From: a virus | Lineage: Duplodnaviria; Caudoviricetes | Length of the DNA: 26,633 nt | Direction: 5' to 3' (one strand) | IMG/VR virus record: IMGVR_UViG_3300017784_009472 | Location: 1-26,633 of that record | Notes under the pieces: generated by a model | Told to the model about the DNA's origin: nothing | The model's database searches: none | Seen by the model: only the letters and a program-made list of their open reading frames with translations | Made by a program: the position numbers and the translations under genes | Shown: positions 98 through 26,633 of the stretch, piece after piece | Layout of the letters: each line of letters starts with the position of its first letter | Position numbering within the stretch: position 1 is the stretch's first letter

Positions 98-748
98 TTA
101 ATCCCTATTTTGTGCAAATTCAATAAACTTATAAAACTCTGAACGAGAGTTGTCATTGTTATCCAGAAATGCACCAGACATGCGTGCAGTGCGCATAGTG
201 GAGTCATGCCTGATGCCACGATTGGAACAACAAGTATGCTTGGCCTCAATCATAACTGCCACGCCATTATTCAATTCACAAGCCTGATCAATATGCTGAT
301 GAATTTGCATAGTCAGATTCTCCTGCACTTGTGGTCTGCGCGAAAACCAATCCACAATGCGATTGAGCTTGCTCAAACCAATAACCTTACCATCTCGAGA
401 AGGTATGTATGCTACATGTGCTACGCCAGTGAACGCTGCATGATGATGTGAACAAAGTGAAGTCACTTTGATATTGTTCTGGCATACAATGCCATCATAT
501 TGATCCACATTTGCAAATGCAGTTACTTTGGGTGGCGTGCTGTAACAACCGGAGGCTAAATCCTCAACAAAAGCCTTTGCAACTCGGTGTGGTGTATTGG
601 AGCTATTTGGATCATTGCGCCAATCAATGCAAAGTGCATCAAGATAAGCTTCATAAGCTTTTGCGGCATGATCAATAATCTCATTCTTCTCTTGTTCTGA
701 GCGAGGATGGTTATGATTTGCGTATGGAATCAATACTTTCTTAGACAT
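98..748 (-). CDS. folE: GTP cyclohydrolase I
   Basis: Motifs TPHRVAK, SLCSHH (Zn ligands), GVAHVAYIP, IGLSKLNRIV, RPQVQENLT, HTCCSNRG. Confidence 0.97.
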   Translation of the reverse strand: MSKKVLIPYANHNHPRSEQEKNEIIDHAAKAYEAYLDALCIDWRNDPNSSNTPHRVAKAFVEDLASGCYSTPPKVTAFANVDQYDGIVCQNNIKVTSLCSHHHAAFTGVAHVAYIPSRDGKVIGLSKLNRIVDWFSRRPQVQENLTMQIHQHIDQACELNNGVAVMIEAKHTCCSNRGIRHDSTMRTARMSGAFLDNNDNSRSEFYKFIEFAQNRD

Positions 749-3014: not shown

Positions 3015-3656
3015 ATGAAATACGAAAGTACAAAGATAATTGAATTAGGAAGTTGTGCATTTAGACAGTGGAAAGCAGATAGCCATTGCAAATATATCCA
3101 TGGATACAGGTTAATAGGAAAATTTTGGTTTGAATGTAATTATCTTGATGAAAAGAACTGGGTTGTAGATTTTGGTGGTTTAAAAGAACTCAAGCAAGTC
3201 CTAGAAAAACAATTTGATCATACATTATGCATTTCAGCTGACGACCCTTTGCTAGATCATTTTAAAAATTTACACACCTTAGGTGCAGCAGATCTAAGAG
3301 TCATGGACAAAGGTGTTGGTATTGAGAGAACAGCAGACTGGTGTTATGATGTAGCTGATGCACATGTAAGAGGCATAACTAGTAATAGATGTTGGGTTAG
3401 TAGGGTTGAAGTATGGGAGCATGATAAAAATTCTGCAATTGTTAGCTCAGGCTATCAACATGTACCGGATCATAATCCATATGCTGCAGATAAGCATGTT
3501 GCAACAAACAATACAATTGCAACAACAATACAACCATCTCTTGAACAAGTTAATGTTGTTAATGCCGGTGCTAATGTTGGTTCGGGTGTACCCCTTAGCA
3601 CTAAAGTTACCAAAGGCATGAGCAATCCTTTTGCAGGCACATCTTGGAGTGTTTAA
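3015..3656 (+). CDS. queD: 6-carboxy-5,6,7,8-tetrahydropterin synthase (QueD/PTPS family) with C-terminal extension
   Basis: SHCKYIHGY, WVVDFGGLK, FDHTL, VEVWEHDKNSA; neighbours folE and queE. Confidence 0.88.
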   Translation: MKYESTKIIELGSCAFRQWKADSHCKYIHGYRLIGKFWFECNYLDEKNWVVDFGGLKELKQVLEKQFDHTLCISADDPLLDHFKNLHTLGAADLRVMDKGVGIERTADWCYDVADAHVRGITSNRCWVSRVEVWEHDKNSAIVSSGYQHVPDHNPYAADKHVATNNTIATTIQPSLEQVNVVNAGANVGSGVPLSTKVTKGMSNPFAGTSWSV

Positions 3657-4648: not shown

Positions 4649-5398
4649 ATGGATAACGAGAATACAATCTTTTTAAGTGACGATAAAATCTTTTACACAG
4701 TAGAAGGAGAAGGTGAATATGCAGGCATACCTTCTGTTTTTATGCGTCTTTCAATGTGCAATTTAACATGTCAAGGTTTTAAATCAGCAGATGCACCACA
4801 TGGTTGTGATAGTTTTGTCAGTTGGTCTGTAAAGAACAGAATGACATTTGATGAAATTTTTGAATTTATAGCCCAGAATGGCTATAATTGCAAGCTACAT
4901 GATGGTGCAATATGGAAGATTACTGGTGGTGAACCGCTCATACAGCAAAAACAATTGCTCAAGTTAGTTCGTGCATATGCAGAACGTTTTGGTTATGTAC
5001 CTGTTATTGACTTTGAAACTAACGCTACAATTCTTCCGGATGAAGCTTGGATCAGTGAATTTAAAGCAACATTTACAACATCACCAAAATTAGCTAACAA
5101 CGGTGATCCTGTTGAAAAGAGATACAAGCCAGCTGTTTTAAAATGGCATGCAGAGAATGGTTCAGGATTTAAATTTGTTATTAGCAATGAAGCGGATATG
5201 AATGAAATTCTTGAGAAATATATACATAATTCTGATATTAATGTACCGAAGAACCGTGTATGGTTGATGCCTTGTTGCGGCAGTAGAGCTGAATTAGCTG
5301 AAAAAGCACCAATGGTTGCAGAGCTGTGCAAGAAACATATGCTTAATTTTAGCCCACGCTTGCAACTTGTAATCTGGGATAAAGCTCTTAAAGTATAG
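4649..5398 (+). CDS. queE: 7-carboxy-7-deazaguanine synthase (radical SAM)
   Basis: FYTVEGEG, PSVFMRLSMCNLTC...CDS, ITGGEPL, ETNAT, SPKL, FKFVI, WLMP, SPRLQ. Confidence 0.93.
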   Translation: MDNENTIFLSDDKIFYTVEGEGEYAGIPSVFMRLSMCNLTCQGFKSADAPHGCDSFVSWSVKNRMTFDEIFEFIAQNGYNCKLHDGAIWKITGGEPLIQQKQLLKLVRAYAERFGYVPVIDFETNATILPDEAWISEFKATFTTSPKLANNGDPVEKRYKPAVLKWHAENGSGFKFVISNEADMNEILEKYIHNSDINVPKNRVWLMPCCGSRAELAEKAPMVAELCKKHMLNFSPRLQLVIWDKALKV

Positions 5399-5399
5399 T

Positions 5400-6146
5400 A
5401 TGAGAATTGCTGTTTCCGGTTCTGCATGTCAAGGCAAGACAACATTTACAAATGACTTTCTTAAAGAATGGCCAACATATAGATTGGTTGAATCAAGCTA
5501 CAGGAAAGTAATAAGGGAAGAAAAAGCTCGTCATAGTAAGGAGACTACCAAGGATTTGCAATGGAAGATTCTCAATTGCATGATTGAGGATATGCAAAAA
5601 AATTGTGATAAAGGCAATAAAGTAATATTTGATCGTTGCCCGCTTGATAATATTGTTTATTCTCTTTGGGGCAATACCAAAACTCCCGATAAATTTGATG
5701 ATAAATTCATTGAAAAATGCATACCACTTGTTCGTGAATCCATGCGTTATTTGGATATTATTTTCTTCACACCCATTACACGTGTTGCGCCTGTACCAAT
5801 TGTTAATGATGATAAGCGTGAAGTGGATGAATCTTATATCAAAGAAATTGATAATATCTTCAAAACAATTGTGCATCAAATTCAAAAAACAGGTGTTTCT
5901 ACCTTTTTTCCAAAAGATGATTCGCCAGGTATTGTGGAAATATTCGGTAAACCAGAAGAAAGAATTCAGTTGGTAAGGTACTATCTTAATGTAGATGGCA
6001 ATCTAATCGGTGAAGAGCAAAGTGTTATTAGTGATCTGCAAACATCTTCACAAGTAGAAGATTTACTTAAAACACAAAAACAAATAGCTGAAAAAGAAAA
6101 ATTTGAAAAATCATTATATAATAATCTAATCCTACCAGATAGATAA
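5400..6146 (+). CDS. P-loop NTPase / nucleotide-kinase-like protein (AAA_28-type)
   Basis: RIAVSGSACQGKTT Walker A and VIFDRCPLDNIVY (the DR motif of dNMP/dNK-like kinases); 1 nt after the queE stop. Confidence 0.75.
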   Translation: MRIAVSGSACQGKTTFTNDFLKEWPTYRLVESSYRKVIREEKARHSKETTKDLQWKILNCMIEDMQKNCDKGNKVIFDRCPLDNIVYSLWGNTKTPDKFDDKFIEKCIPLVRESMRYLDIIFFTPITRVAPVPIVNDDKREVDESYIKEIDNIFKTIVHQIQKTGVSTFFPKDDSPGIVEIFGKPEERIQLVRYYLNVDGNLIGEEQSVISDLQTSSQVEDLLKTQKQIAEKEKFEKSLYNNLILPDR

Positions 6147-7872: not shown

Positions 7873-8637
7873 ATGAAAGAGAAAATAGGTGTAGGTATTG
7901 TAACCTGTGATAGGCCTGCTTTCCTTAAAAAATGTATTAAAAGTATTAATAAAGACTGGTATGATGAATTAGTTATTATAAATGATGGGTTTCAGAGAAT
8001 TGAACAGTCTGGGATGAATATTATTAATAATGAAGTGAATCAAGGTGTTGGCAAGTCAAAGAATAAAGCAATAAAATTTCTCTTAGAAAGAGGCTGTGAG
8101 CATATTTTTCTGGTTGAAGATGATGTTATTTTTCTTCAGAATGCATTTGAAGCATATATTGAAGCCAGCAAAAAAACTAGAGTGAAGCACTTCAATTACT
8201 GCTTGCATGGTCAAGACAACAAACAAAATAACACGCCTAATCCTCGTAAAATTTTTGAAATAAGAGGTCAGAGAGTTGCTTTATATTTTAATGTATACGG
8301 CGCATGTAGCTATTACCATAGATCGGTTTTGGAAGAAATCGGATTAATTGATGAAGTGTATATTAATGCTATGGAGCATGTTGATCATACAATGATTGCT
8401 ATAAACTACAAATACCACCCACCATTTCGATGGTTCATTGACCTAGAGAACAGCAATCAATACATTGTTGATCAAGACTACCATCATGACAAATCTACTA
8501 TAAGAAGAGGCAATTGGATGGAGAATTTTCGTAAAGGTGTAGAGAGATTCAAACAAAAACATAATGTTGATGTTACAAATCCCGGTCAACATTATGACAG
8601 TCTCGATAGAGTTATAGAATACTTTAAATCATTATGA
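7873..8637 (+). CDS. glycosyltransferase family 2 (GT-A fold)
   Basis: GIVTCDRP, LVIINDG, NQGVGKSKN, IFLVEDDV, EHVDH. Confidence 0.9.
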   Translation: MKEKIGVGIVTCDRPAFLKKCIKSINKDWYDELVIINDGFQRIEQSGMNIINNEVNQGVGKSKNKAIKFLLERGCEHIFLVEDDVIFLQNAFEAYIEASKKTRVKHFNYCLHGQDNKQNNTPNPRKIFEIRGQRVALYFNVYGACSYYHRSVLEEIGLIDEVYINAMEHVDHTMIAINYKYHPPFRWFIDLENSNQYIVDQDYHHDKSTIRRGNWMENFRKGVERFKQKHNVDVTNPGQHYDSLDRVIEYFKSL

Positions 8638-9416
8638 GTACAGAAAAAATTGGTGTGGGAATTACCACATATAATACAGAACACTATTACGAGGCATTAT
8701 ACAACTCTTTACCACGCGATAAAATTGATGAACTTGTAACTGTGAATGGTGGTAAAGAATACTCTAAAAAATATGATTCAGATTGGATACAGCACCGTCA
8801 AAACAGATATCCAAGTGTGTGTAGAAATGATTGCATTAATTTTCTCTTAGAAAAAAAATGTGATCATATTTTTATAATTGAAGATGATATGGTCATTAAA
8901 AATAAAGATATATTTCACAAATATATAGATGCGTCCAAAGCAAGCGGGTTAAAGTACTTTTCATTTGTAAGTACATCCTGGGAATCTGGTACTCCTGAAA
9001 AGCGAACACCTAAATTAACCGTAGAATATAATAAAGATACGAGCATTTCATTTTACCCAAATATGTGTAATGAATTTACATATCATCATGCATCGTGTTA
9101 CAGTAAGAACGGTCTGTATGATACAAGCTACAGATTTGCATGGGATGTTGATCTCACGTACAGAGAGTCCATTCGCAGTGATTATGCAGCACCGTTCTGG
9201 TGGTTTGCAGATTTAACAAATTCAGATAACTATATTATGAATAACCCTGAGACGAACAGTCGGATTGACGCACCGGATAATCCTGATGGTTCTCGTACTC
9301 AAAAAATACACAAAGAATGGGAATTTTTTATCAAAAAACATAATATTGCAGTAACACAAATACCGAATAAAACAAAGCAAGAAGTTGTTAGTTTCTTAAA
9401 GCAGATAAAGCCATGA
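8634..9416 (+). CDS. glycosyltransferase family 2-like (paralog of the upstream gene)
   Basis: GITTYN, VNGG, CRNDCI, IFIIEDDM, GLYD, WDVD; ATGA overlap. Confidence 0.85.
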   Translation: MSTEKIGVGITTYNTEHYYEALYNSLPRDKIDELVTVNGGKEYSKKYDSDWIQHRQNRYPSVCRNDCINFLLEKKCDHIFIIEDDMVIKNKDIFHKYIDASKASGLKYFSFVSTSWESGTPEKRTPKLTVEYNKDTSISFYPNMCNEFTYHHASCYSKNGLYDTSYRFAWDVDLTYRESIRSDYAAPFWWFADLTNSDNYIMNNPETNSRIDAPDNPDGSRTQKIHKEWEFFIKKHNIAVTQIPNKTKQEVVSFLKQIKP

Positions 9417-10270
9417 AAATTGCAATTGGTATAAATGCTTTCAAGCCTTATGATAAACTAAATCATCGCGAAATTCTTTGTATAGAGAGTTTACGAAAAT
9501 TAAAACAAAAATTTAAAAACGTTAATCTGTATATTGTAACTTTTGAAGAGGATAAGCTAACTTATGATGGGTTTACTACAGTTAATAAATTAAAAAAGAA
9601 ATCAAATGCAGTTATAAAAGAATATTTTAAGCAAGACTGGCTCTCGCATGAATACAATTTAAGAAAAAATGATATTGATAATAACAAAAGAGAATTACCA
9701 ATAGTAAATGAAATATTTGATGTTATGTCAGATATCGATAGTGATTATTTTTTATTTACAAATACCGATATAATAATTTCTGACAGATTTATTAAGCATA
9801 TAACTGAAGAATTTGAATGCTATCCTGCAAGTAAAGCCTGTATAAAAGATATAAAATCTCTTGAAGAAACACCTGTTGTAGATGCATATTCAGTTCACGG
9901 CTTTGATGCTTACGCCATTAATAACAAGGTATGGAAGAAAGTAGCACCGAGACTTAAACCCTTTATTCTCGGACACAACTATTGGGATACATACTTCTTT
10001 ACAATGCTAAATTGTTTTTGTAAGTGTAAAAATTTAAACAAATTACCTTTTGTTTGCTTCCATATAAATCATGATGGGTGTTCAAGTGATAAAGCTTTTG
10101 TTGAGAATTATTATACAGAAGATGTATTTAGGCGTGATGCAATAGTTAATAAAATTTGGTGGCCCTACGTGTTTAATGTCTTAGAAAAACGCCCGACAGT
10201 TAACAACTGTCTTTGGTACCAACCTTTTGAGAATGAAGTTGAATTAGAGCAACTATATTTTAAAATATAG
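9413..10270 (+). CDS. putative GT-A glycosyltransferase
   Basis: YFLFTNTDIII (DxD-like), GFDAY, LGHNYWD, CFHINH; operon context. Confidence 0.65.
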   Translation: MKIAIGINAFKPYDKLNHREILCIESLRKLKQKFKNVNLYIVTFEEDKLTYDGFTTVNKLKKKSNAVIKEYFKQDWLSHEYNLRKNDIDNNKRELPIVNEIFDVMSDIDSDYFLFTNTDIIISDRFIKHITEEFECYPASKACIKDIKSLEETPVVDAYSVHGFDAYAINNKVWKKVAPRLKPFILGHNYWDTYFFTMLNCFCKCKNLNKLPFVCFHINHDGCSSDKAFVENYYTEDVFRRDAIVNKIWWPYVFNVLEKRPTVNNCLWYQPFENEVELEQLYFKI

Positions 10271-10273
10271 TTA

Positions 10274-11077
10274 ATGAATTCTGTTGTTGCATTGTCTATA
10301 GGCTTTACTTTTGACTATATTAAACCTTTTTTAAAAAGTTTTAATGAACAAGTAGATGGTACTTTGTTTTTAGTTACTGATCTAGCGCCTGCAAATATCC
10401 CGCTTGATCTTAAAAAAATACAAATTATAAATTTCTATAAGTTTATTGAAAAGCATAACATAGCAAAAGGTCTTACACCTTACAACCTAAAACCAATTAT
10501 TTTTTATCTTTTACTCAAAGAAGTACAAAAGCAAACAGATTGTAGTATTACGATGCTTACAGATGTTGATGTTATTTTTCAAGGTGATCCTTTTAAAAAA
10601 TTTAACGATCAATATACAAAAAATGATGTTGTGTTAGCAGAAGAGCGCAATTCTTACAAAGATTGTGAGACAAATTCAATATGGTATAAAGTAGGATACG
10701 CAAATAGTTATGATACTGTAAAAGATAAAAAAATCTTAAATTGCGGTGTCACAATAGGTAGCATTTCCAAAATTATCGATTACCAAAAGCAAGTCGCACA
10801 AGAATTGAGCATAATATTATCACAACGAAATTATTTTGCATATGATCAAGTAATTTTAAACCTTCTTACATATGTTCGCAAGACGCTAGATCTCAAAATT
10901 CTCCCCTTTGGTAATGATTTTATCATCCACCTTTCTGCAGCAAGAGAAGAAGATTATAACACAGAATGGCTAAGAAATAATTTTTTTGCTGAGCCAGGTA
11001 AAGAACCATATACTATAGTGCATCAATTTGATAAAAAGAACATAACGAAAGAATTTGTTCCGAAGAAATATGAGTAA
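10274..11077 (+). CDS. putative GT-A glycosyltransferase
   Basis: LTDVDVIFQGDPF, LNCGVTIG, YDQVILN, IVHQFDK. Confidence 0.75.
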   Translation: MNSVVALSIGFTFDYIKPFLKSFNEQVDGTLFLVTDLAPANIPLDLKKIQIINFYKFIEKHNIAKGLTPYNLKPIIFYLLLKEVQKQTDCSITMLTDVDVIFQGDPFKKFNDQYTKNDVVLAEERNSYKDCETNSIWYKVGYANSYDTVKDKKILNCGVTIGSISKIIDYQKQVAQELSIILSQRNYFAYDQVILNLLTYVRKTLDLKILPFGNDFIIHLSAAREEDYNTEWLRNNFFAEPGKEPYTIVHQFDKKNITKEFVPKKYE

Positions 11078-11963
11078 TTTGGTTTATTTTTTTCTTAACA
11101 GAACATTTCTACCGGGAGATTATAAAAATATGTACACGGCGGATACTCTTCCGCTATATTATCAACAAACATATAATAACAATAAAAAATATGCCGATAA
11201 TTCTTACTTTATTACCCAGAGCCCTTGTAATCTGGATGGCTTTGTAGATGTTAACAGTCTAATTAATACAGAAAAATATAAAGAAGTTATCGATATCTTT
11301 CAAACTAAATGGTCAAGATATATGGTTGATCCGTTTTGGTTTAACACCACTATACGCGTATTTTTATTTTTAATATTTATTATAGAGAATAATTTAACTG
11401 ATACTGTTCATGTTGAAGGTGACAATTTAATTTATTATAATATAGAAAATTTAAATAAAATGTTTGTAAATAATGAATATGGCTTTTGTAATGAAGCACC
11501 GTTTGCTGCAGCGCCATGTTTTATTTTTGTAAAAGATAAAAAAGCCGCACAAACACTTTTAGAACTTCATATAAAACTTATTAAAAAAGGTGAAGACAGT
11601 CTCAAGTATCATGTAGGTCATTTTTATAATTGGATTACAGACATGGCATTATTAGATTTGATCTACAAATATAATAAAGACTATAAAATGCTTCCTTGTT
11701 TACCATATGGTGAATATTCACAAAATTTTGAAACAATAAAAATGTTATTTGATCCCAATCCATATGGCATGTTTTTAGGCGGTACCAACCAGGGTCACCC
11801 TGCAGGTTATACAGAATATAGACATTTTATAGGTAAAGAAATAATGGAAAAAAATATTGACGTAATTTATGAAAAAAAGCCTTTTGTTTTATATGAAGAA
11901 CAAAAAATACCTATTTTTAATCTACACCTGCATAATAAAAAATGTATTGAAAAATTTTTATGA
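11070..11963 (+). CDS. putative glycosyltransferase/nucleotide-sugar-dependent protein
   Basis: FWFNTTIRVF, VHVEGDNLIY, TDMALL, FDPNPYGMFLGG, FNLHLHNK. Start moved from TTG 11055 to ATG 11070, which overlaps the upstream stop. Confidence 0.6.
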   Translation: MSNLVYFFLNRTFLPGDYKNMYTADTLPLYYQQTYNNNKKYADNSYFITQSPCNLDGFVDVNSLINTEKYKEVIDIFQTKWSRYMVDPFWFNTTIRVFLFLIFIIENNLTDTVHVEGDNLIYYNIENLNKMFVNNEYGFCNEAPFAAAPCFIFVKDKKAAQTLLELHIKLIKKGEDSLKYHVGHFYNWITDMALLDLIYKYNKDYKMLPCLPYGEYSQNFETIKMLFDPNPYGMFLGGTNQGHPAGYTEYRHFIGKEIMEKNIDVIYEKKPFVLYEEQKIPIFNLHLHNKKCIEKFL

Positions 11964-12757
11964 TTGATAACACAGATTTTATAATCACACCTGATAAATT
12001 ATTAAGTCTAGCAACAAACTTTATATCTCGATATGGTAAAAAGATAACATATAATCCAGAAGAAAATATAATATTTTTGCACAGCGATAATATTATAACT
12101 TTTATTAGAGAGGTATTACCTAATATAAAATATAAGTTCGTTCTTATTACCCATGATGCAGATGCACCTATTATTGATGATTATCGAATAATTCTAGATA
12201 ATATATTTCTTGTTAAATGGTTTGCTATGAATTGTCACATACTACACGAAAAGCTACAACCTATTCCTATAGGAATGGCAAATGAATGCTGGGCTCATGG
12301 TAATAAGGAAACAATGCTAAAAATAATTAATGAAAATAATAAAAAAGATAATTTTGTTTATTGTAATTTTGATCCTAATACAAACTTATATGATAGATCT
12401 TACGCTATTACAAAATTAAAAGCAAATAAATTTATTAATTTTGAATTTACAAAATTGCCCTACGAGGAATACTTAAGAAAATTGAGTACATATAAATACG
12501 TAATATCACCGCCAGGTAATAGTATTGACTGCCATAGAATTTGGGAATCAATTTATGTTAAAACTATTCCTATTGTAATTAAAAGTATACCGATGGTTTT
12601 CTTTAAGGACTGTCCTATACTATTTATTAATGATTGGGACGACCTCTCACAGGAAATGCTTATTAATAATTACAATACAGTACTAGAGAAAAATAACAAT
12701 AAAGCAGATTTTAGTTATTATAAGAAACTAATTCTTGAATCTAGCAAACAAGAGTAA
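11960..12757 (+). CDS. exostosin (GT47)-like glycosyltransferase
   Basis: LITHDAD, WFAMN, PIPIG, YKYVISPPGNSIDCHRIWESIYVKTIPIV, DWDDL. Confidence 0.75.
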   Translation: MIDNTDFIITPDKLLSLATNFISRYGKKITYNPEENIIFLHSDNIITFIREVLPNIKYKFVLITHDADAPIIDDYRIILDNIFLVKWFAMNCHILHEKLQPIPIGMANECWAHGNKETMLKIINENNKKDNFVYCNFDPNTNLYDRSYAITKLKANKFINFEFTKLPYEEYLRKLSTYKYVISPPGNSIDCHRIWESIYVKTIPIVIKSIPMVFFKDCPILFINDWDDLSQEMLINNYNTVLEKNNNKADFSYYKKLILESSKQE

Positions 12758-12759
12758 TA

Positions 12760-13377
12760 ATGGTAAATATCACAATGGACTATGACGAGCAACTAGCTGA
12801 TGAAGCTCATCTGGGTGGTTACGGTTATAATGGAGACCCTGCTACTACATATCCAAATATGTGGAAATTTTTAGCTAAAGACAAAAAAATTAAATCTATT
12901 ATTGAATTAGGCTGCGCTAGAGGACAGGTATTAAGAATTTTTAATGACTTAGGATGCAAGGTATTGGGAATAGAGGGGTGCACGAAAGCGGTAAAAGAAA
13001 ATCTCCTACCCGACAGAGTCAGACAATATGATTTTACAAAAGTAAAAGTTATACCTCAAAAAAATTATGATCTTGGTATTGCTATTGAATTTGTAGAGCA
13101 TGTCGAAGATTACTATAAAGAAAATTATTTGTCTTGCTTTGATGCATGTAGATATGTTGCAATTACATTTGCCAAACCAGGACAAGGGGGTCACCATCAT
13201 GTAAACTGTCAACCCGAAGAATACTGGATAGGTATTTTTGAAAAAAGAGGCTTCACATACGATTTTGAATATACAAATATACTCAAAGATAAAGCGATGA
13301 CAGATAGATTCGAATATTGTCCGACTTTTGATGGTAATCATTTTGAACATAGGGGATTATTTTTTAGTAAAAAATGA
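12760..13377 (+). CDS. class I SAM-dependent methyltransferase
   Basis: IIELGCARG motif I, LGIEG, YDLGIAIEFVEHV, PGQGGHHHVNCQPEEYW. Confidence 0.88.
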   Translation: MVNITMDYDEQLADEAHLGGYGYNGDPATTYPNMWKFLAKDKKIKSIIELGCARGQVLRIFNDLGCKVLGIEGCTKAVKENLLPDRVRQYDFTKVKVIPQKNYDLGIAIEFVEHVEDYYKENYLSCFDACRYVAITFAKPGQGGHHHVNCQPEEYWIGIFEKRGFTYDFEYTNILKDKAMTDRFEYCPTFDGNHFEHRGLFFSKK

Positions 13378-14183
13378 AAAAAGTCTTTATATCAATGCCT
13401 CACTACAGTGGGTGGAAGCTAGATTATTTTAAAAAATATATGGCACCGCGTAATAGAAAATATTGCGAGCTGCACGGGTATAAATATATTGAAACTTCGC
13501 CTGAAACACTGCATGTTTCACAAATTTTTCCGGGTGTTCCTGATCGAGATAACATTATGTTTTTTAGATGGCAATTCTTTAAAAATGCCATTGAGACGGG
13601 AATGGTTAAAGATGGTGATATAATAAATCATTTTGATTGTGATGTATATATTGCACAACCCCATAAAAAATTTGAAACTACAAAAAGTTTTACTTATGCA
13701 ATTGATTCAGGCAATACCCATTGCATGGGAATCTTTTCTATGAAGATCAATGATTTTACAAAAAAATTGATTGACGCAATAACAAGTAGAGACAGATTTG
13801 AAGCATTAAAAAATTACCCTCTTTTTAAAGAAGACGTTGGACAGTATGTACCTTTTTATGCTTGTGATCAACACGCATACTACCATACTGCTGGTATCAA
13901 GCCTCACAGCTGGGTATCTTTTCTTGATATGCCTAATTTTGGATTTCATTCATGTAAAACAGAATACACAATTTTCAGTTTAGATGAATTAAAGGAACAT
14001 GTTGAAATTTTAGGCCCTGAATGGAACACAACGCATCTTATAGAAGAGACGGGTGAAAACGGCAAACCTAATTATTATGATATAGTACGTATTGAAAAAG
14101 ACAAAGTTATTAATCGTCATTTTGCGGGTGGTCAACCATGGCTTTGTCCAGAGTGGGAAGCTTATAGTCAAAAATATGTATAA
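13374..14183 (+). CDS. putative glycosyltransferase, GT34 (GMA12/MNN10)-like
   Basis: NRKYCELHGYKY, HFDCDVYI (DxD), DQHAY, WN, RHFAG. Confidence 0.65.
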   Translation: MKKVFISMPHYSGWKLDYFKKYMAPRNRKYCELHGYKYIETSPETLHVSQIFPGVPDRDNIMFFRWQFFKNAIETGMVKDGDIINHFDCDVYIAQPHKKFETTKSFTYAIDSGNTHCMGIFSMKINDFTKKLIDAITSRDRFEALKNYPLFKEDVGQYVPFYACDQHAYYHTAGIKPHSWVSFLDMPNFGFHSCKTEYTIFSLDELKEHVEILGPEWNTTHLIEETGENGKPNYYDIVRIEKDKVINRHFAGGQPWLCPEWEAYSQKYV

Positions 14184-14892
14184 CACGAAAATATTTGTTT
14201 GTCACTACCACGCTCTTACAGAACGTAAAGCGTATCTCGATACAGTATTACCAACCTTAGATATTTCCCATGTGTATTCTATGTCTTTCACTCGCGATAA
14301 TTTAAAAGAATATGAACACTGCTTTTCTATGGCCGATGAAGTAATAGACGAAAAATGTAAATATATGATTAATAAATGCGGTAAAGCTGACCTAGGCAAT
14401 GGTATTTCAAACCCTATTAAAGCATTATGCTTAGAACATATAAAAATCTATAATTCTATAGTTGAGGAAAATTTAGATTTTGGAATTATTCTCGAAGACG
14501 ATGCTGTGTTTGTAGATAATTTTAATGAAAAATTAAAAACTACAATAGATAATCTACCAGCAGATTGGGATGTAGTATTCTTAACAAACGGTTGCGAGGG
14601 CAGGCCACATCATTTAGCCTGGGCGCGTGAAAATAATCCGACTATTAATAATTTTGTAAAAATGGCTAAAAGAGTGAGTTGGACGGGAGGTGCATATATG
14701 GTTAAAAGACATATAGCAGAAAAATTTTCAAAGCATATATTTCCTATTGTTTACCCTCCTGACTGGGAATTGAATTACCTTTTAAATTTTTGTGAATGCA
14801 ATACATATTGGTTAGAAGACCCTATAGTATATGAAGGATCCAATCCAGTGTCAGGTCATATGTATAAATACGGAACAAGTGTGTGTAGATAA
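14176..14892 (+). CDS. glycosyltransferase family 25
   Basis: LTERKAY, LCLEHIKIY, IILEDDAVF, WDVVFL, TGGAYMV, PPDW. Start moved to ATG 14176, which overlaps the upstream stop. Confidence 0.85.
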   Translation: MYNTKIFVCHYHALTERKAYLDTVLPTLDISHVYSMSFTRDNLKEYEHCFSMADEVIDEKCKYMINKCGKADLGNGISNPIKALCLEHIKIYNSIVEENLDFGIILEDDAVFVDNFNEKLKTTIDNLPADWDVVFLTNGCEGRPHHLAWARENNPTINNFVKMAKRVSWTGGAYMVKRHIAEKFSKHIFPIVYPPDWELNYLLNFCECNTYWLEDPIVYEGSNPVSGHMYKYGTSVCR

Positions 14893-14895
14893 TTT

Positions 14896-15549
14896 ATGAA
14901 TAAAAATTTTAATTTAACAACACTTAAATGTATTATAGATGAATCAATAAACTACCCAACGCCTAGCAAATTTTCACCAGAAGGACGGAGCGGTGCTGCA
15001 GGCTTGGGTACTTTGTTATTTGGTTTAGTTGTATCTTTACGCGCAAAGAATATACTTGAATTGGGAACCGCTAGCGGTGGGTCTGCATACCCTTTGGTGC
15101 TGGGTGCCTACCTTACAAACGGTAAAGTTATTTCTGTTGATAATGGTACTTTTCCTATAAACATAAACTGGATTAATAATATTGCAATAGAGAATATATC
15201 AGAATACCAAGAATTTATACAATCAGATGCTATTCAATATCTTAAAAATAGAAAAGAACCTATTGATCTGGTGCATATTGATGACTGGCACGATAGGACC
15301 CACGTTTTAGCTGAATTAGAACTTGTAAAGGATCTCTTAACGCCTTGTGGTGTAATAACTATGCATGATGCCATGTATCATAACTCTGAACCGAAATATC
15401 GTGAAGAGCTGGATGCGGTTGGTGAATTTGGTGGAGGCGGTGTATATAAAGCAGTAAAAGATTTTGTAGCAAAATATCCTAATGATTGGGAATATGTAAC
15501 AATTCCTGCTGATCACGGGTTAACTATTTTAAGAAAAATTCAAAAATGA
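14896..15549 (+). CDS. class I SAM-dependent O-methyltransferase (Methyltransf_24-like)
   Basis: ILELGTASGGS, ISVD, IDLVHIDDWH, LTPCGVITMHD, GLTIL. Confidence 0.88.
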   Translation: MNKNFNLTTLKCIIDESINYPTPSKFSPEGRSGAAGLGTLLFGLVVSLRAKNILELGTASGGSAYPLVLGAYLTNGKVISVDNGTFPININWINNIAIENISEYQEFIQSDAIQYLKNRKEPIDLVHIDDWHDRTHVLAELELVKDLLTPCGVITMHDAMYHNSEPKYREELDAVGEFGGGGVYKAVKDFVAKYPNDWEYVTIPADHGLTILRKIQK

Positions 15550-16370
15550 ATATATTTGTATTAGGATCAAGTGGTCAGATTGGCGCGCCTCTTACATCGT
15601 ATCTAAGAAGTAATGGTCATACAGTAACCGAGTTTGACATTGTTAATACATATGATCAAGATGTATCTAACCCGCATATGTTTACTGTGGAAAAATTAAA
15701 AAAGGCTGATTTTGTTTATTTTCTTGCTTTTGATGTAGGTGGGTCGCGATATCTTAAAACATATCAAAATACTTTTAATTTTTTACATAACAATATTAGT
15801 TTAATGAAAAATGTTTTTGAAAAACTACAAATCACAAAAACACCATTTATTTTTGCTTCATCTCAAATGTCAAACATGACACACTCTTCATATGGTGTTG
15901 CAAAAAAGATTGGTGAGCTCTATACTGATATGCTCAATGGCTTGACTGTTAAATTTTGGAATGTTTATGGATATGAAGAAAATCTAGAGAAATCTCACGT
16001 TATAACAGATTTTATTTTAAAAGCAAAATCAGGCCACATCGATTGCTCTACCAATGGTCAAGAAAGTAGACAATTTTTATATGTTGATGATTGTTGTAAA
16101 GCTTTGCTTACTCTAGCTGAGCAGTGGAAAACCCTGGATAAAGGACCTGATCATGAATACCATATTACATCATTTGAGTGGCATACTATTCAGCAAGTAG
16201 CAGAGACAATACAGAAAATTATACCCTGTACACTCTCGTTTGCACAAGGAATCGATACAGTTCAAAAAGATTCTAAAAACGAACCTAGAAAAGATATTCT
16301 CAAGTATTGGTCCCCTTGTACGACATTAGAACAGGGCATAGACAATATTACTAAACTTTATAAAAAATAA
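15546..16370 (+). CDS. NAD-dependent nucleotide-sugar epimerase/dehydratase (extended SDR)
   Basis: VLGSSGQIG Rossmann motif, FASS, YGVAK (YxxxK), NVYG, RQFLYVDD. Confidence 0.9.
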   Translation: MNIFVLGSSGQIGAPLTSYLRSNGHTVTEFDIVNTYDQDVSNPHMFTVEKLKKADFVYFLAFDVGGSRYLKTYQNTFNFLHNNISLMKNVFEKLQITKTPFIFASSQMSNMTHSSYGVAKKIGELYTDMLNGLTVKFWNVYGYEENLEKSHVITDFILKAKSGHIDCSTNGQESRQFLYVDDCCKALLTLAEQWKTLDKGPDHEYHITSFEWHTIQQVAETIQKIIPCTLSFAQGIDTVQKDSKNEPRKDILKYWSPCTTLEQGIDNITKLYKK

Positions 16371-16372
16371 TA

Positions 16373-16400
16373 TTGAAAAAATAAAACTCTATAGTAAATT
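16373..16400 (+). promoter_or_regulatory. sigma70-like promoter
   Basis: TTGAAA-N16-TAAATT, 6 nt before GTG 16407. Confidence 0.5.
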
Positions 16401-16406
16401 TATATA

Positions 16407-17417
16407 GTGAAAAATCAAAAAAGCGCGCTTGTTTTAGGTGCCGGTGGGTTTATTGGCAACCATTTAGTTAATAATCTTAAAAATGACGGATATTTTGTCA
16501 GGGGTGTTGATCTTAAGATGCCCGAGTATTCTGAAACAAATGCCGATCAATTCTTTAGAATGGATCTTACAGATTTTAGTGCTGTTAAAAAAGCAATGAA
16601 TGCATCCTGGCACTACAACATGTCAAGTAATGTTAAACCATTTGATGAAGTGTATCAATTAGCTGCAGATATGGGCGGCGCAGGTTATATTTTTACAAAA
16701 GAACATGATGCTAATGTAATGCAGAATTCTGCAACTATTAATCTAAATGTCTGTAGAACAGCAGTAGAATACAATTATACAGACAGTAGAATTTTCTATA
16801 GCAGTAGTGCATGCATGTACCCGGAGCATAATCAATTGGATCCTAATAACCCTAATTGTGAGGAAAGCAGTGCTTATCCTGCAAATCCGGATAGTGAATA
16901 TGGCTGGGAAAAACTTTTTAGTGAGAGATTATATTTAGCTTACAATCGTAATTATAATTTAAATGTACGCATTGCAAGATTTCATAATATTTTTGGTCCG
17001 TTTGGGACCTGGAAGGGTGGCCGCGAAAAAGCACCTGCAGCGATCTGCCGCAAAGTTTTGGAATCAACCGGTGGTATAGAAATTTGGGGTGATGGTAATC
17101 AAACACGCTCATTCTTGTTTATTGATGAATGTATTGAAGGTGTGAGACGTTTAATGAAACAGGATAGTTTTCTTGGCCCGGTAAATATTGGATCAGAAGA
17201 AATGGTCACGATAAATCAGCTTGTAGATATGGCCTGTTCTTTTGAAAATAAAACTCTCGAGAGAAATTATAAACTTGACGGGCCTACAGGTGTGCGTGGC
17301 CGAAATTCTAGCAATAAACTCATACAAGAAAAATTAAATTGGCAACCAAACTATCCTCTTTCTAAAGGTCTTGAAAAAACATATTTTTGGATAAAATCTC
17401 AACTCGAAAAGTGTTGA
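16407..17417 (+). CDS. GDP-mannose 3',5'-epimerase-like extended SDR
   Basis: GAGGFIG, LAADMGGAGYI, YSSSACMYP, YGWEKL, GGREKAPAAICRK, WGDGNQTRSF, GVRGRNS: the signature set of the GME family. Confidence 0.88.
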   Translation: MKNQKSALVLGAGGFIGNHLVNNLKNDGYFVRGVDLKMPEYSETNADQFFRMDLTDFSAVKKAMNASWHYNMSSNVKPFDEVYQLAADMGGAGYIFTKEHDANVMQNSATINLNVCRTAVEYNYTDSRIFYSSSACMYPEHNQLDPNNPNCEESSAYPANPDSEYGWEKLFSERLYLAYNRNYNLNVRIARFHNIFGPFGTWKGGREKAPAAICRKVLESTGGIEIWGDGNQTRSFLFIDECIEGVRRLMKQDSFLGPVNIGSEEMVTINQLVDMACSFENKTLERNYKLDGPTGVRGRNSSNKLIQEKLNWQPNYPLSKGLEKTYFWIKSQLEKC

Positions 17418-17441
17418 TTTTCCTTGCAAAGCATTTATTAT
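17414..17441 (+). promoter_or_regulatory. sigma70-like promoter
   Basis: TTGATT-N16-TATTAT, 6 nt before ATG 17448. Confidence 0.6.
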
Positions 17442-17447
17442 TAAATA

Positions 17448-18032
17448 ATGATTATTAATCAAAAAATATACGACGGCTCACTATTACATTCACGATTTGC
17501 ATATAAATTTTTCCGAGAAAAGACACTACCCATTGGCAATATTATCGCATTTAGAGCACCGATGAAAGTTGAAGCAGAAGGCATGATTGACAGTGAAGAC
17601 ATTCTCAATGCTGATTATATTTACAGTGATGATGCAATTAATTTTCTCTGGGAAATTCCTAACCTTGATGCATTTGGCGCTGTTGCATATCAAAGACTTT
17701 TAAACACCCAGATTGCTAATATTCTCTCTACACAATATCTCAAAGCTCCCATTGAAATGAAGGGCGACGATTTGATTGTTCATAAGGAACACATACAAGG
17801 TAGTGTTGCACAGCCAACGGGCAAATGTAGTGTGAGCATCACATATACAAAGAATAATGTTGCACTTGGTCATACCGGTATTAACATTGTAGCAGGTAAG
17901 AAGGCACCCGCTTTTGCTTACTCCACAAATCTTACTGATGAGCAAGCTAATATCTTCATGGCAGAAGTTATTAATCTGTTTTATAATCTTAACGACGATA
18001 TCTTCATTGCCACAACTAAAGTTATTAGTTAA
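17448..18032 (+). CDS. DUF366-family protein (class II aaRS/biotin-lipoate ligase-like fold)
   Basis: YDGS.L...FAY, IIAFRAP, MID.ED, YQRLL, GDDLIV, GKCSVSI, GHTGINI match the DUF366 pattern as I recall it. Confidence 0.7.
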   Translation: MIINQKIYDGSLLHSRFAYKFFREKTLPIGNIIAFRAPMKVEAEGMIDSEDILNADYIYSDDAINFLWEIPNLDAFGAVAYQRLLNTQIANILSTQYLKAPIEMKGDDLIVHKEHIQGSVAQPTGKCSVSITYTKNNVALGHTGINIVAGKKAPAFAYSTNLTDEQANIFMAEVINLFYNLNDDIFIATTKVIS

Positions 18033-18394
18033 TGGATACAATTTTTGACTTTCTTAACTCCATTCTTTATTCTAAGAGAAGTAGAGAGATAAATCACGAT
18101 AATAATAATTCCTACACACCATTCATGATCAATAGATGGTGTTCTTTTTATAATAAAGAGTTAGCTAGTGTTATCAACATTACTACAAACCGCTTTACTA
18201 ATTTTTCAAAGCAAGAACATTTTTATTTTTTAAAAAATTTTTTACCAAAATACAATTTCAAGAAAATAGACTACGTTAAAAAGAAAAATACAAAGGAAGA
18301 AGAAGAGAGTAAAGAGTTAACAATGTTGGCTCAAAACCTTGAACTCTCTAAAAGAGAGATAAATCATTATATCTTATGTCAAAAATATCTGTAG
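18032..18394 (+). CDS. gp62: clamp loader small subunit (T4 gp62-like)
   Basis: IFDFLNSI, YTPFMINRWCS, HFYFL...LPK, K-rich segment, LSKREI; 120 aa. Confidence 0.75.
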   Translation: MDTIFDFLNSILYSKRSREINHDNNNSYTPFMINRWCSFYNKELASVINITTNRFTNFSKQEHFYFLKNFLPKYNFKKIDYVKKKNTKEEEESKELTMLAQNLELSKREINHYILCQKYL

Positions 18395-18828
18395 ATGCAC
18401 TTGGACCAGTACCAAAAAGTTTAATTGATTTTGCTGATCTACCCAAAAATACGTTTGATTCAGTATTTTTAGGTCACAATCTCAAGCAAGTTCTTGATGA
18501 TGTTATTCTTGCCATCTTTATTGATGAATCAGATAATGGTAAAGAGATTATTCGTAATGGTATTCTTGTACCAGTAAATGCTGAAACAAAAGCATGGCGA
18601 TTGGGCAGAGTTGTTCTTGCAGGCCCAAGTGTGAGATACGCTAAACTCGGTGATGTAATTTGCTTTCCAAATAATATGGGTGTGCCTATTTCAAATATCG
18701 ATGTAGATGGTTACGGCAAAATTAATAAAGGTATCTTTATTAACGAACAGCGCATATTCGGTATTTGCTCTACACGCGAGGACAATGAAAGTAGCCCTAG
18801 GATCGTTAAAAAATCTTCTAGAAAATAA
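18376..18828 (+). CDS. GroES/Cpn10-like co-chaperonin
   Basis: LDDVIL, NGILVP mobile loop, GRVVLAGP, KLGDVICFP, INEQRIFG. Confidence 0.75.
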   Translation: MSKISVDALGPVPKSLIDFADLPKNTFDSVFLGHNLKQVLDDVILAIFIDESDNGKEIIRNGILVPVNAETKAWRLGRVVLAGPSVRYAKLGDVICFPNNMGVPISNIDVDGYGKINKGIFINEQRIFGICSTREDNESSPRIVKKSSRK

Positions 18829-25443: not shown

Positions 25444-26364
25444 TTATTGCCGTACTGTCTTAGTAAAGTACTTCCACTTGTCCCACATGGCACCGTTCTG
25501 CTTGAGCAGTTCCTGGCTATTGGCTCTAATAGGATTGATATCAATACCACCACGTCTCACATACAGACATGACACCATTAGTTCTTCAGGTCTTGTCAAA
25601 TCATAAAGACGCTTGTAAATCGTCTCACAAATCTCTTCATGGAAGTGACATTCGTCTCTAAATGAAACAATGTACTGCAACAGAGATGTTTGATTGAGTT
25701 CACAAGGTCCTTTGTAATGAATATAAACATCCCCCCAGTCCGGTTGAGATGTGACCCTGCAATTACTCTTTAACAGGGCTGAATGAAAGCGCTGCACTTT
25801 GCTACTGTCACCTTCTAACCAACCAAGTAGTGTAGGATCTTCTTTGTAGCCACGCGATTTGATAGCAGTGACATCAATATTGTTTTCCAGTGTAGGATAC
25901 AACGCAGAAGGAAACAATGCTGGGTAATACATTGCATCATCAATTGCTTTTGTAAGCCTGACACACACTCTGACTTCAGTTTCAAGCAATTTGGAAAGAT
26001 CATTTTCCATTACAGCTTCAAGCTGCTGCAGTACACTGATAATATTGCCTTGATATGTCTCCATATTAAACGAATTCATGTACAGTTTAATGGACTTGGA
26101 TTCAACAATATATTTGTTAGTAGCAGGGTAAACAACTTTAGCAATAGCTGCAATGGGCATGCCCTCTTGAGTCAAGCAAGACACTTCATAAGCATTCCAC
26201 ACATCGTAGCCAAAAAAAGGTGGATTTTCATCAGAGATGTTCAAATGTTTCCTATTATTTTGTCTTGGTTCCCGAACCAGAAGCGAAGGATCATATGTAC
26301 ATTTGTACCCGGTAATTTTACCCAAATGCTTTGAGATATTACTATTATCTAATTCTGTATTCAT
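25444..26364 (-). CDS. queF: NADPH-dependent 7-cyano-7-deazaguanine (preQ0) reductase, bimodular type
   Basis: YDPSLL, DVWNAYEVSCL, VESKSIKLYMNSFN (QueF motif), LLKSNCRVTSQPDWG (catalytic Cys/Asp), FHEEICE, YVRRGGIDINP. Confidence 0.96.
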   Translation of the reverse strand: MNTELDNSNISKHLGKITGYKCTYDPSLLVREPRQNNRKHLNISDENPPFFGYDVWNAYEVSCLTQEGMPIAAIAKVVYPATNKYIVESKSIKLYMNSFNMETYQGNIISVLQQLEAVMENDLSKLLETEVRVCVRLTKAIDDAMYYPALFPSALYPTLENNIDVTAIKSRGYKEDPTLLGWLEGDSSKVQRFHSALLKSNCRVTSQPDWGDVYIHYKGPCELNQTSLLQYIVSFRDECHFHEEICETIYKRLYDLTRPEELMVSCLYVRRGGIDINPIRANSQELLKQNGAMWDKWKYFTKTVRQ

Positions 26365-26371
26365 TGTATAT

Positions 26372-26399
26372 ATTATATGCTATCTATTAAGTTCTTCAA
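26372..26399 (-). promoter_or_regulatory. sigma70-like promoter for queF
   Basis: Minus strand TTGAAG-N16-TATAAT, 7 nt before ATG 26364. Confidence 0.65.
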
Positions 26400-26633
26400 C
26401 TCATTATATTTGTCATCCAAATTGTAAGTTGAAACGCCACCTGATAAAAGATGAGCAGTTTCTGGTAAAATATCTTCGTAACTTTCGTCACGTCGAATAT
26501 CAAGTCGCTTGATGCTTTCTCTAAACCTCTTGCTATTAAATTGCTCAATTTGATTCTTAAGCAACATAAAATTCATAATTGAAGAGAATTCTTGCTTAAC
26601 ATATGTGACACTTTCACCTGGAAAACGTTGCAG
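26373..26633 (-). CDS. 3' end of a gene that starts outside the window; resembles C-termini of phage radical-SAM proteins
   Basis: Frame open to the window edge (LQRFPGESVTYVKQEFSSIMNFML...); contains F...IKRLDIRRDESYEDILPE. Family call is tentative. Confidence 0.55.
   Translation of the reverse strand: MQRFPGESVTYVKQEFSSIMNFMLLKNQIEQFNSKRFRESIKRLDIRRDESYEDILPETAHLLSGGVSTYNLDDKYNELKNLIDSI

Follow-up and report, generated by a model that had tools for sequence, protein, structure and literature searches.

The closest described counterparts of the locus studied here belong to two phages and a few cellular proteins. In phage immuto_2-6A the G of the DNA is fully replaced by fdPreQ1, a formyl-preQ1 (accessible part of bioRxiv 10.1101/2023.04.13.536721); its genes follow the order dpdA3, formyltransferase, kinase, queF, its QueC is of the canonical PDCR type, and the protein family DUF366 gives no match in it. 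Cellulophaga phage phiST has a pathway to 7-deazaguanine (dDG) with DpdL and DpdA3 and without QueC, according to the same part of that preprint (bioRxiv 2023.04.13.536721). QueC itself takes CDG (7-carboxy-7-deazaguanine) to ADG (7-amido-7-deazaguanine) and from there to the nitrile preQ0 (PMC13376578, accessible part), and Cap9 performs the amide-forming half-reaction only, with a protein amine (PMC12424860, accessible part). DUF366 (PF04017) is the family of PH0223 from Pyrococcus horikoshii (PDB 2DDZ); we found no publication on it in the literature searched, whose reach excluded subscription papers and supplements. The accessible text of PMC6884629 does not mention 'DUF', and in that of PMC1414084 PH0223 appears only as self-interacting. 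We analysed a DUF366 gene within IMG/VR virus record IMGVR_UViG_3300017784_009472, positions 1 to 26,633 (hereafter the window, the whole stretch of 26,633 nucleotides). Its product has the fold of PH0223 but is phage-encoded, 23-25% identical to it and carries an insertion after the GDD motif; the gene precedes a clamp-loader gene and is not placed inside a que operon. We consider it probable, without being certain of it, that DUF366 is an accessory enzyme at the QueC step of 7-deazaguanine synthesis, acting beside QueC and not instead of it, as gene neighbourhoods and the decay of the gene suggest.

17448..18032, + strand: DUF366 gene, an open reading frame of 194 residues with the biotin/lipoate-ligase catalytic fold (basis: Pfam, structure model, alignments)

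The Pfam search places this protein in PF04017: it scores 82.4 bits where the gathering cut-off is 29.9, with E 3.8e-23, and covers positions 8 to 183 of the 184 in the model. It also matches 2DDZ with E 2e-7. The AlphaFold model, of high predicted local accuracy (pLDDT 95), has 2DDZ as its best structural match, followed by biotin and lipoate ligases; in both fold tests the modelled protein shares the fold of 2DDZ and the catalytic fold of biotin protein ligases and LplA. The initial annotation had named this family and a class II aminoacyl-tRNA synthetase/biotin-lipoate ligase fold, and both are borne out. Enzymes with the biotin/lipoate-ligase fold adenylate carboxylates and pass acyl groups to amines, and the Asp, Lys and Asn of the nucleotide site of biotin ligases have roles in ATP handling. 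All the conserved residues of DUF366 are kept in the window protein (Y8, D48, D51, Q82, R83, G106-D107-D108, K126, H142, N146), and in a weak profile match (E 0.052) its GDD, K126 and HxGIN fall opposite the Asp, Lys and GIN of the Aquifex biotin ligase. From the fold, K126, D108 and N146, together with the acidic D48/D51 loop, are likely to form a nucleotide and Mg site.

The neighbourhood of DUF366 in cells was examined with an alignment of cellular DUF366 proteins as the query: the best 80 of 428 metagenome loci were fetched, and profiles were built from the neighbour genes, the identities of which were confirmed by Pfam. At least one of queC, queD and queE is found near DUF366 in 73 of these 80 loci, and in 44 of the 45 which have 1.5 kb or more to either side of it. 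The commonest is queC (63/80), followed by queE (61/80), queD (41/80) and folE (25/80); queC lies directly upstream of DUF366 in 59 of the 74 loci with at least 300 nt upstream. This count upholds the link to the que pathway which the initial annotation had drawn. In distant viral loci, queC is within 350 nt upstream of DUF366 in three cases out of four. The QueF of the window, taken as a query, finds no match in the 80 metagenome and 4 distant viral loci. An adjacency of queC and DUF366 by chance, in a 3-kb operon of a multi-megabase genome, would be very unlikely, an estimate made from these sizes. Of 14 control genomes, only M. jannaschii and M. acetivorans give a DUF366 match, and 13 give a QueC match. 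Some distant phages (L084-L087; G and L numbers denote our records and loci) have DUF366 inside deazaguanine clusters, three of them with FolE2, a phosphoribosyltransferase, a kinase and a DpdA3-like gene.

The second line of evidence is the fate of DUF366 in related phages. We chose loci by the groES-like gene downstream, which avoids selecting for DUF366, and read the state of DUF366 in 80 of 242; a second set of 80 loci gave 55 distinct DUF366 proteins once 25 identical duplicates were dropped. Three states occur among the relatives: intact, eroded (types 1 and 2) and absent. The usual order in T4-like sister clades is queC, glutamine amidotransferase, glycosyltransferase, DUF366, gp62. Where DUF366 is intact and at least 3 kb lie upstream, queC is there for 29 of 34 distinct proteins and dpdL for none of the 34. 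Where DUF366 is eroded as type 1 and the flank is sufficient, dpdL-dpdA3 takes the place of the sisters' queC and amidotransferase genes in 9/9 cases and queC is found in 0/9; the acidic loop is deleted in these proteins, and GDD, K126 and N146 are altered. One genome of this clade is complete (G174, 217 kb, with terminal repeats). It has folE, queD, queE, dpdL and dpdA3; queC, the amidotransferase, queF and dpdN were not found in it, and its DUF366 has lost the acidic loop, GDD and K126. Its DpdL-like protein carries LxxxHRHxF, a DpdL signature according to the accessible part of bioRxiv 2023.04.13.536721, and matches phiST with E 2e-17. By analogy with phiST, with which it has this gene set in common, the clade is predicted to carry dDG in its DNA; it differs from phiST in being T4-like and in retaining an eroded DUF366. 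The T4-like clade in which dpdL-kinase-dpdA3 replaces queC and the amidotransferase gene comprises L216 (G174) and L296-L305.

In the clade of the window, DUF366 is the most conserved of five proteins, with a median identity of 78% that exceeds the 73% of the capsid protein and the 72% of the groES-like one, whereas in the DpdL clade it is the least conserved (43%, against 87% and 75%). In a quick tree of a neighbour gene, the eroded clade is nested among intact, queC-linked relatives with a Shimodaira-Hasegawa-like approximate likelihood ratio support of 96. Type 2 proteins (L187:9998-10588, L196, L197, L199; G172, G180) are full length, with 74% identity against 62% for a neighbour, and in the 93.6 kb of one of their records (G172) neither que nor dpd genes stand where the kinase and capsid sites are. 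Neither DUF366 nor folE, queD, queE, queC or dpdA3 was found in G181, where the recA-glycosyltransferase-helicase, phoH-kinase and gp23 sites are covered. In cells, only two of the 80 copies have both D51N and D108N (L152, L153); they occupy the usual site, have no que neighbours and probably represent one lineage. Many more eroded forms are seen among distant matches (alignment A3). The pattern in DUF366 comes down to some three events of erosion and a single loss, and not to dozens.

The residues of DUF366 which look catalytic are thus needed in the presence of QueC and dispensable when CDG goes to DpdL, which would place its job after CDG. That some cells keep only queC beside DUF366, and that queF neighbours are absent, points to the QueC step itself. 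As the gene content of relatives suggests, FolE, QueD and QueE would make CDG; QueC, with ammonia from a free glutaminase, would turn it into ADG and preQ0; QueF, DpdN and DpdA3 would then complete and insert the base. The need for DUF366 would be limited to some QueC subtypes or to high flux. The initial annotation had offered assistance to QueC as one of several readings, and it is the one which both the neighbourhoods and the erosion favour.

The QueC proteins linked to DUF366 have a peculiarity of their own. Like the canonical QueC of B. subtilis (3BL5) and Cap9 (9NTO), they keep the PP-loop, the aromatic-Asp pair and the Cys ligands, but the Arg of the DCR motif (present in the reference structures 3BL5 and 2PG3) is missing in 101 of 109: 59/59 in cells, 8/8 in the clade of the window, 33/39 in sister clades and 1/3 in distant phages. 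DUF366 itself is unrelated to QueC. Since Cap9 also lacks this Arg and forms only the amide, our tentative guess is that DUF366 aids the second ATP-dependent half-reaction, from the ADG amide to the preQ0 nitrile, for an Arg-less QueC. Near alternatives at the same step are that it performs the first adenylation, or that it binds, channels or repairs the CDG-AMP or ADG intermediate. Carried to its end, the guess would split preQ0 synthesis between an Arg-less QueC which makes ADG and DUF366 as an ATP-dependent ADG-to-nitrile enzyme on the biotin-ligase fold, a scheme we hold to be doubtful. We would extend it, with the same reserve, to bacteria, probably archaea, and T4-like guanine-replacing phages, the DUF366 of DpdL phages being a pseudoenzyme.

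The phage of the window probably does not lack QueC, contrary to the initial annotation: the window is only 13% complete, and among 16 of the larger records behind the 80 viral loci QueC is present in 10, including G004 (91% complete) and G005 (88%). In G002-G005, queC lies 32-38 kb upstream of DUF366, that is, beyond the start of the window. In G004, recA and the helicase gene flank queC and the genes of a free glutamine amidotransferase and of a glycosyltransferase; folE-queD-queE is also present, and a dpdA3-formyltransferase-kinase-queF block stands beside the capsid gene. The set DpdA3 plus FolE/QueD/QueE/QueC/QueF is therefore complete in this relative. The DpdA3 of G004 shares 44% identity with the immuto_2-6A DNA guanine transglycosylase and the order of the block is the same, with folE, queD, queE and queC in addition. 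By this analogy, the T4-like clade of the window is predicted to have a 7-deazaguanine, probably formyl-preQ1, in its DNA. It differs from immuto_2-6A in its Arg-less QueC, its free glutaminase (seen in G004) and its DUF366. The free-standing amidotransferase beside queC in G004 (L180:12009-12692) is of the N-terminal nucleophile (Ntn) type. A putative free-standing Ntn glutaminase, annotated as hypothetical, also stands beside queC in Vibrio phage VH7D (L378:3714-4322); it has no Pfam match and is called from its Met-Cys start and its look.

Several observations weigh against the proposed role at the QueC step. In cells, 7 of the 80 metagenome loci have no que gene; the search motif biases the set of 80, and its members lack phylogenetic independence. 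The nine eroded type 1 proteins form one clade and count as one event; as that clade also lacks QueF and DpdN, erosion in phages alone cannot separate QueC from later steps. The well-conserved eroded type 2 proteins without que genes hint at another, possibly non-catalytic role. One relative (G197, that is L373/L220; 27 kb, 13% complete) has dpdA3-dpdN-kinase-queF and no DUF366 before gp62 or elsewhere in its 27 kb, and another (G184) combines an intact DUF366 with the lack of a QueC match in 121 kb; this fragment excludes the recA/polymerase region, the site of queC in relatives. Phages immuto_2-6A, CP220 and VH7D carry QueC without a DUF366 match, the QueC of VH7D being Arg-less and accompanied by a free glutaminase. 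The guess about the second half-reaction is further weakened by the 8 of 109 DUF366-linked QueC proteins which retain the Arg, and by CP220, whose QueC has the Arg and which nevertheless carries ADG. Finally, the resemblance to biotin ligases is weak at the level of sequence.

Among other explanations, a role after preQ0 is improbable. DUF366 would then acylate preQ1, as the initial annotation had also suggested, or hand preQ0 to QueF or to the transglycosylase; the fold passes acyl groups to amines, and the QueC-less DpdL clade is also without QueF and DpdN, so that its erosion fits any step after CDG. However, none of the 84 DUF366 loci gives a QueF match, a DpdN-like formyltransferase is already encoded next to QueF in the phage clade, and the constant neighbour of DUF366 is queC, not queF or dpdA3. 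We also think it unlikely that a second job, one without catalysis and connected with the replisome, in the clamp-loader operon, keeps DUF366 beside gp62 in these phages. Such a job would account for the overlap of the DUF366 stop with the gp62 start, for the presence of gp62 after DUF366 in 80/80 loci, and for eroded copies which stay full-length, at 74% identity in one clade without que genes. Yet DUF366 is wholly absent from some relatives picked by a neighbour gene (L233, L234, L242, L256, L220), its position before gp62 is explained by the order found in the sister clades, and no gp62 lies beside it in cells.

That DUF366 replaces QueC and makes ADG or preQ0 from CDG alone, another proposal of the initial annotation, is very unlikely. 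The fold, the lack of queC in the window and the intact DUF366 of G184 speak for it, although in G184 the queC region is outside the fragment; against it, related phages encode QueC (10/16 records), queC stands beside DUF366 in 63/80 cellular loci, and DUF366 decays where QueC is lost. An intact DUF366 in QueC-less genomes was looked for, and DUF366 was found with QueC, and eroded in the one complete QueC-less genome. Nor is DUF366 a universal missing step, since QueC phages mostly have no DUF366 match: in 50,697 phage records QueC is matched in 293 and DUF366 in one, which reads like a bacterial chromosome, and immuto_2-6A makes fdPreQ1 without a DUF366 match. The one record (L083, MW495066.1, 'Microcystis phage MaAM05') has secDF, glyS, fabI, murJ and flagellar genes in a 30-kb region, and resembles a bacterial chromosome that was submitted under the name of a phage. 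The attachment of a deazaguanine to a protein by DUF366, or the use of DUF366 as QueC's protein acceptor, on the model of type IV CBASS (cyclic-oligonucleotide-based antiphage signalling system) and QatBC, is highly improbable as well. QueC-family proteins do modify proteins in this way (accessible part of PMC12424860) and the QueC linked to DUF366 is non-canonical; but the acceptors CdnD and QatB have an N-terminal Met-Gly motif, which occurs in 0/58 and 0/60 rows of the two DUF366 alignments (some rows of A6 being trimmed to the profile envelope), and the operons are complete preQ0 operons, accompanied in phages by DpdA3. This leaves the attachment proposed in the initial annotation unsupported. 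There remains an ordinary biotin or lipoate ligase or transferase, its proximity to que genes being incidental, which the structural matches recall and which we find hardly credible. A GRGR motif is the biotin-binding loop of biotin protein ligases and an invariant acyl-carrier Cys is a feature of LipB-type transferases. Both are missing from DUF366: a GRGR-type loop occurs in 0/58 and 0/60 aligned rows, where an acidic loop is found instead, and no Cys is invariant (the best column has 46/60, with Met in the window protein). Unlike BirA, LplA and LipB, DUF366 also has no extra domain and is linked to queC and not to carrier proteins; its identity to such ligases is 7-16% over the structural matches, and the linkage to queC and the joint decay would be left unexplained.

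The que genes of the window, and a gene which follows one of them, are these:

98..748, - strand: FolE, GTP cyclohydrolase I (PF01227, E 1.6e-47)
3015..3656, + strand: QueD (PF01242, E 1.2e-16; phrog_2389)
4649..5398, + strand: QueE-like radical SAM enzyme (phrog_2076, E 1.9e-43; NCBIfam QueE models below their cut-offs)
5400..6146, + strand: nucleotide-kinase-like protein after queE (Pfam and PHROG searches)
25444..26364, - strand: QueF, two-domain type (PF14819/PF14489), adjoining the capsid gene

The que set of these 26.6 kb is limited to folE, queD, queE and queF; queC and dpdA3 are not within the window. The kinase-like protein is probably not specific to the pathway, because its gene is kept in relatives without que genes. 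DUF366 is not adjacent to any que gene, queE ending 12 kb upstream and queF lying 7.4 kb downstream. In relatives queF closes the dpdA3-dpdN-kinase-queF block, which would here fall past the window end. The open reading frame cut at that end (26373-26633, - strand), just upstream of queF, gives no match to the genes found upstream of queF in those relatives that were compared; a kinase occupies that position in G004. Between the que block and DUF366 lies a variable island (7873-17417) with about 12 genes for glycosyltransferases, methyltransferases and NDP-sugar epimerases. From relative to relative the island varies in its size and in what it contains.

Around DUF366 itself we noted the following:

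17414..17441, + strand: sigma70-type promoter, TTGATT (17414-17419), 16 nt spacer, TATTAT (17436-17441), ending 6 nt before the DUF366 ATG
18032..18394, + strand: gp62-like clamp-loader small subunit (phrog_225, E 1.9e-7), its start overlapping the DUF366 stop
18376-18828, strand not given: groES-like gene for a conserved protein of 150 residues, GroES/gp31-like by eye, present in 80/80 loci

The label of the groES-like protein rests on the look of its sequence, there being no Pfam, PHROG or NCBIfam match; it follows DUF366 together with gp62 in all 80 viral loci, regardless of what lies upstream. Sigma70-like sites occur at chance level over the window as a whole (42 found, 36.0 +/- 5.7 expected). 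Of 55 distinct sequences upstream of DUF366 in relatives, 46 have the promoter at the conserved position, where shuffling gives 1.3, and a Shine-Dalgarno-like site is found in 0/55. This suggests a host-sigma70 promoter with a leaderless DUF366 transcript. The same type is absent before gp21 (0/26), gp23 (0/18) and gp62 (0/47) and precedes the groES-like gene (14/57), the epimerase gene (7/17) and queE (3/4). Of the 'dedicated early-type promoter' of the initial annotation, the promoter stands, conserved in position, and 'dedicated' does not, because the DUF366 stop overlaps the gp62-like start and other genes have the same promoter type. In this phage group, several genes stand behind sigma70-type promoters placed as for leaderless transcripts, and few Shine-Dalgarno sites occur; this may be a clue to the host.

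DUF366 is thus a known family within a known, DpdA3-type deazaguanine modification of DNA, and is likely a helper of QueC, not a substitute for it and not a missing step of universal occurrence. The usual account of the preQ0 pathway has four enzymes, FolE, QueD, QueE and QueC. If the proposed role is true, a fifth conserved protein tied to QueC would have to be added, and a family with a solved structure would receive a function. This could explain the altered active-site motif of many QueC proteins and would mean new chemistry on the biotin-ligase fold, for which the QueC-less DpdL clade is a source of natural dead variants of DUF366.
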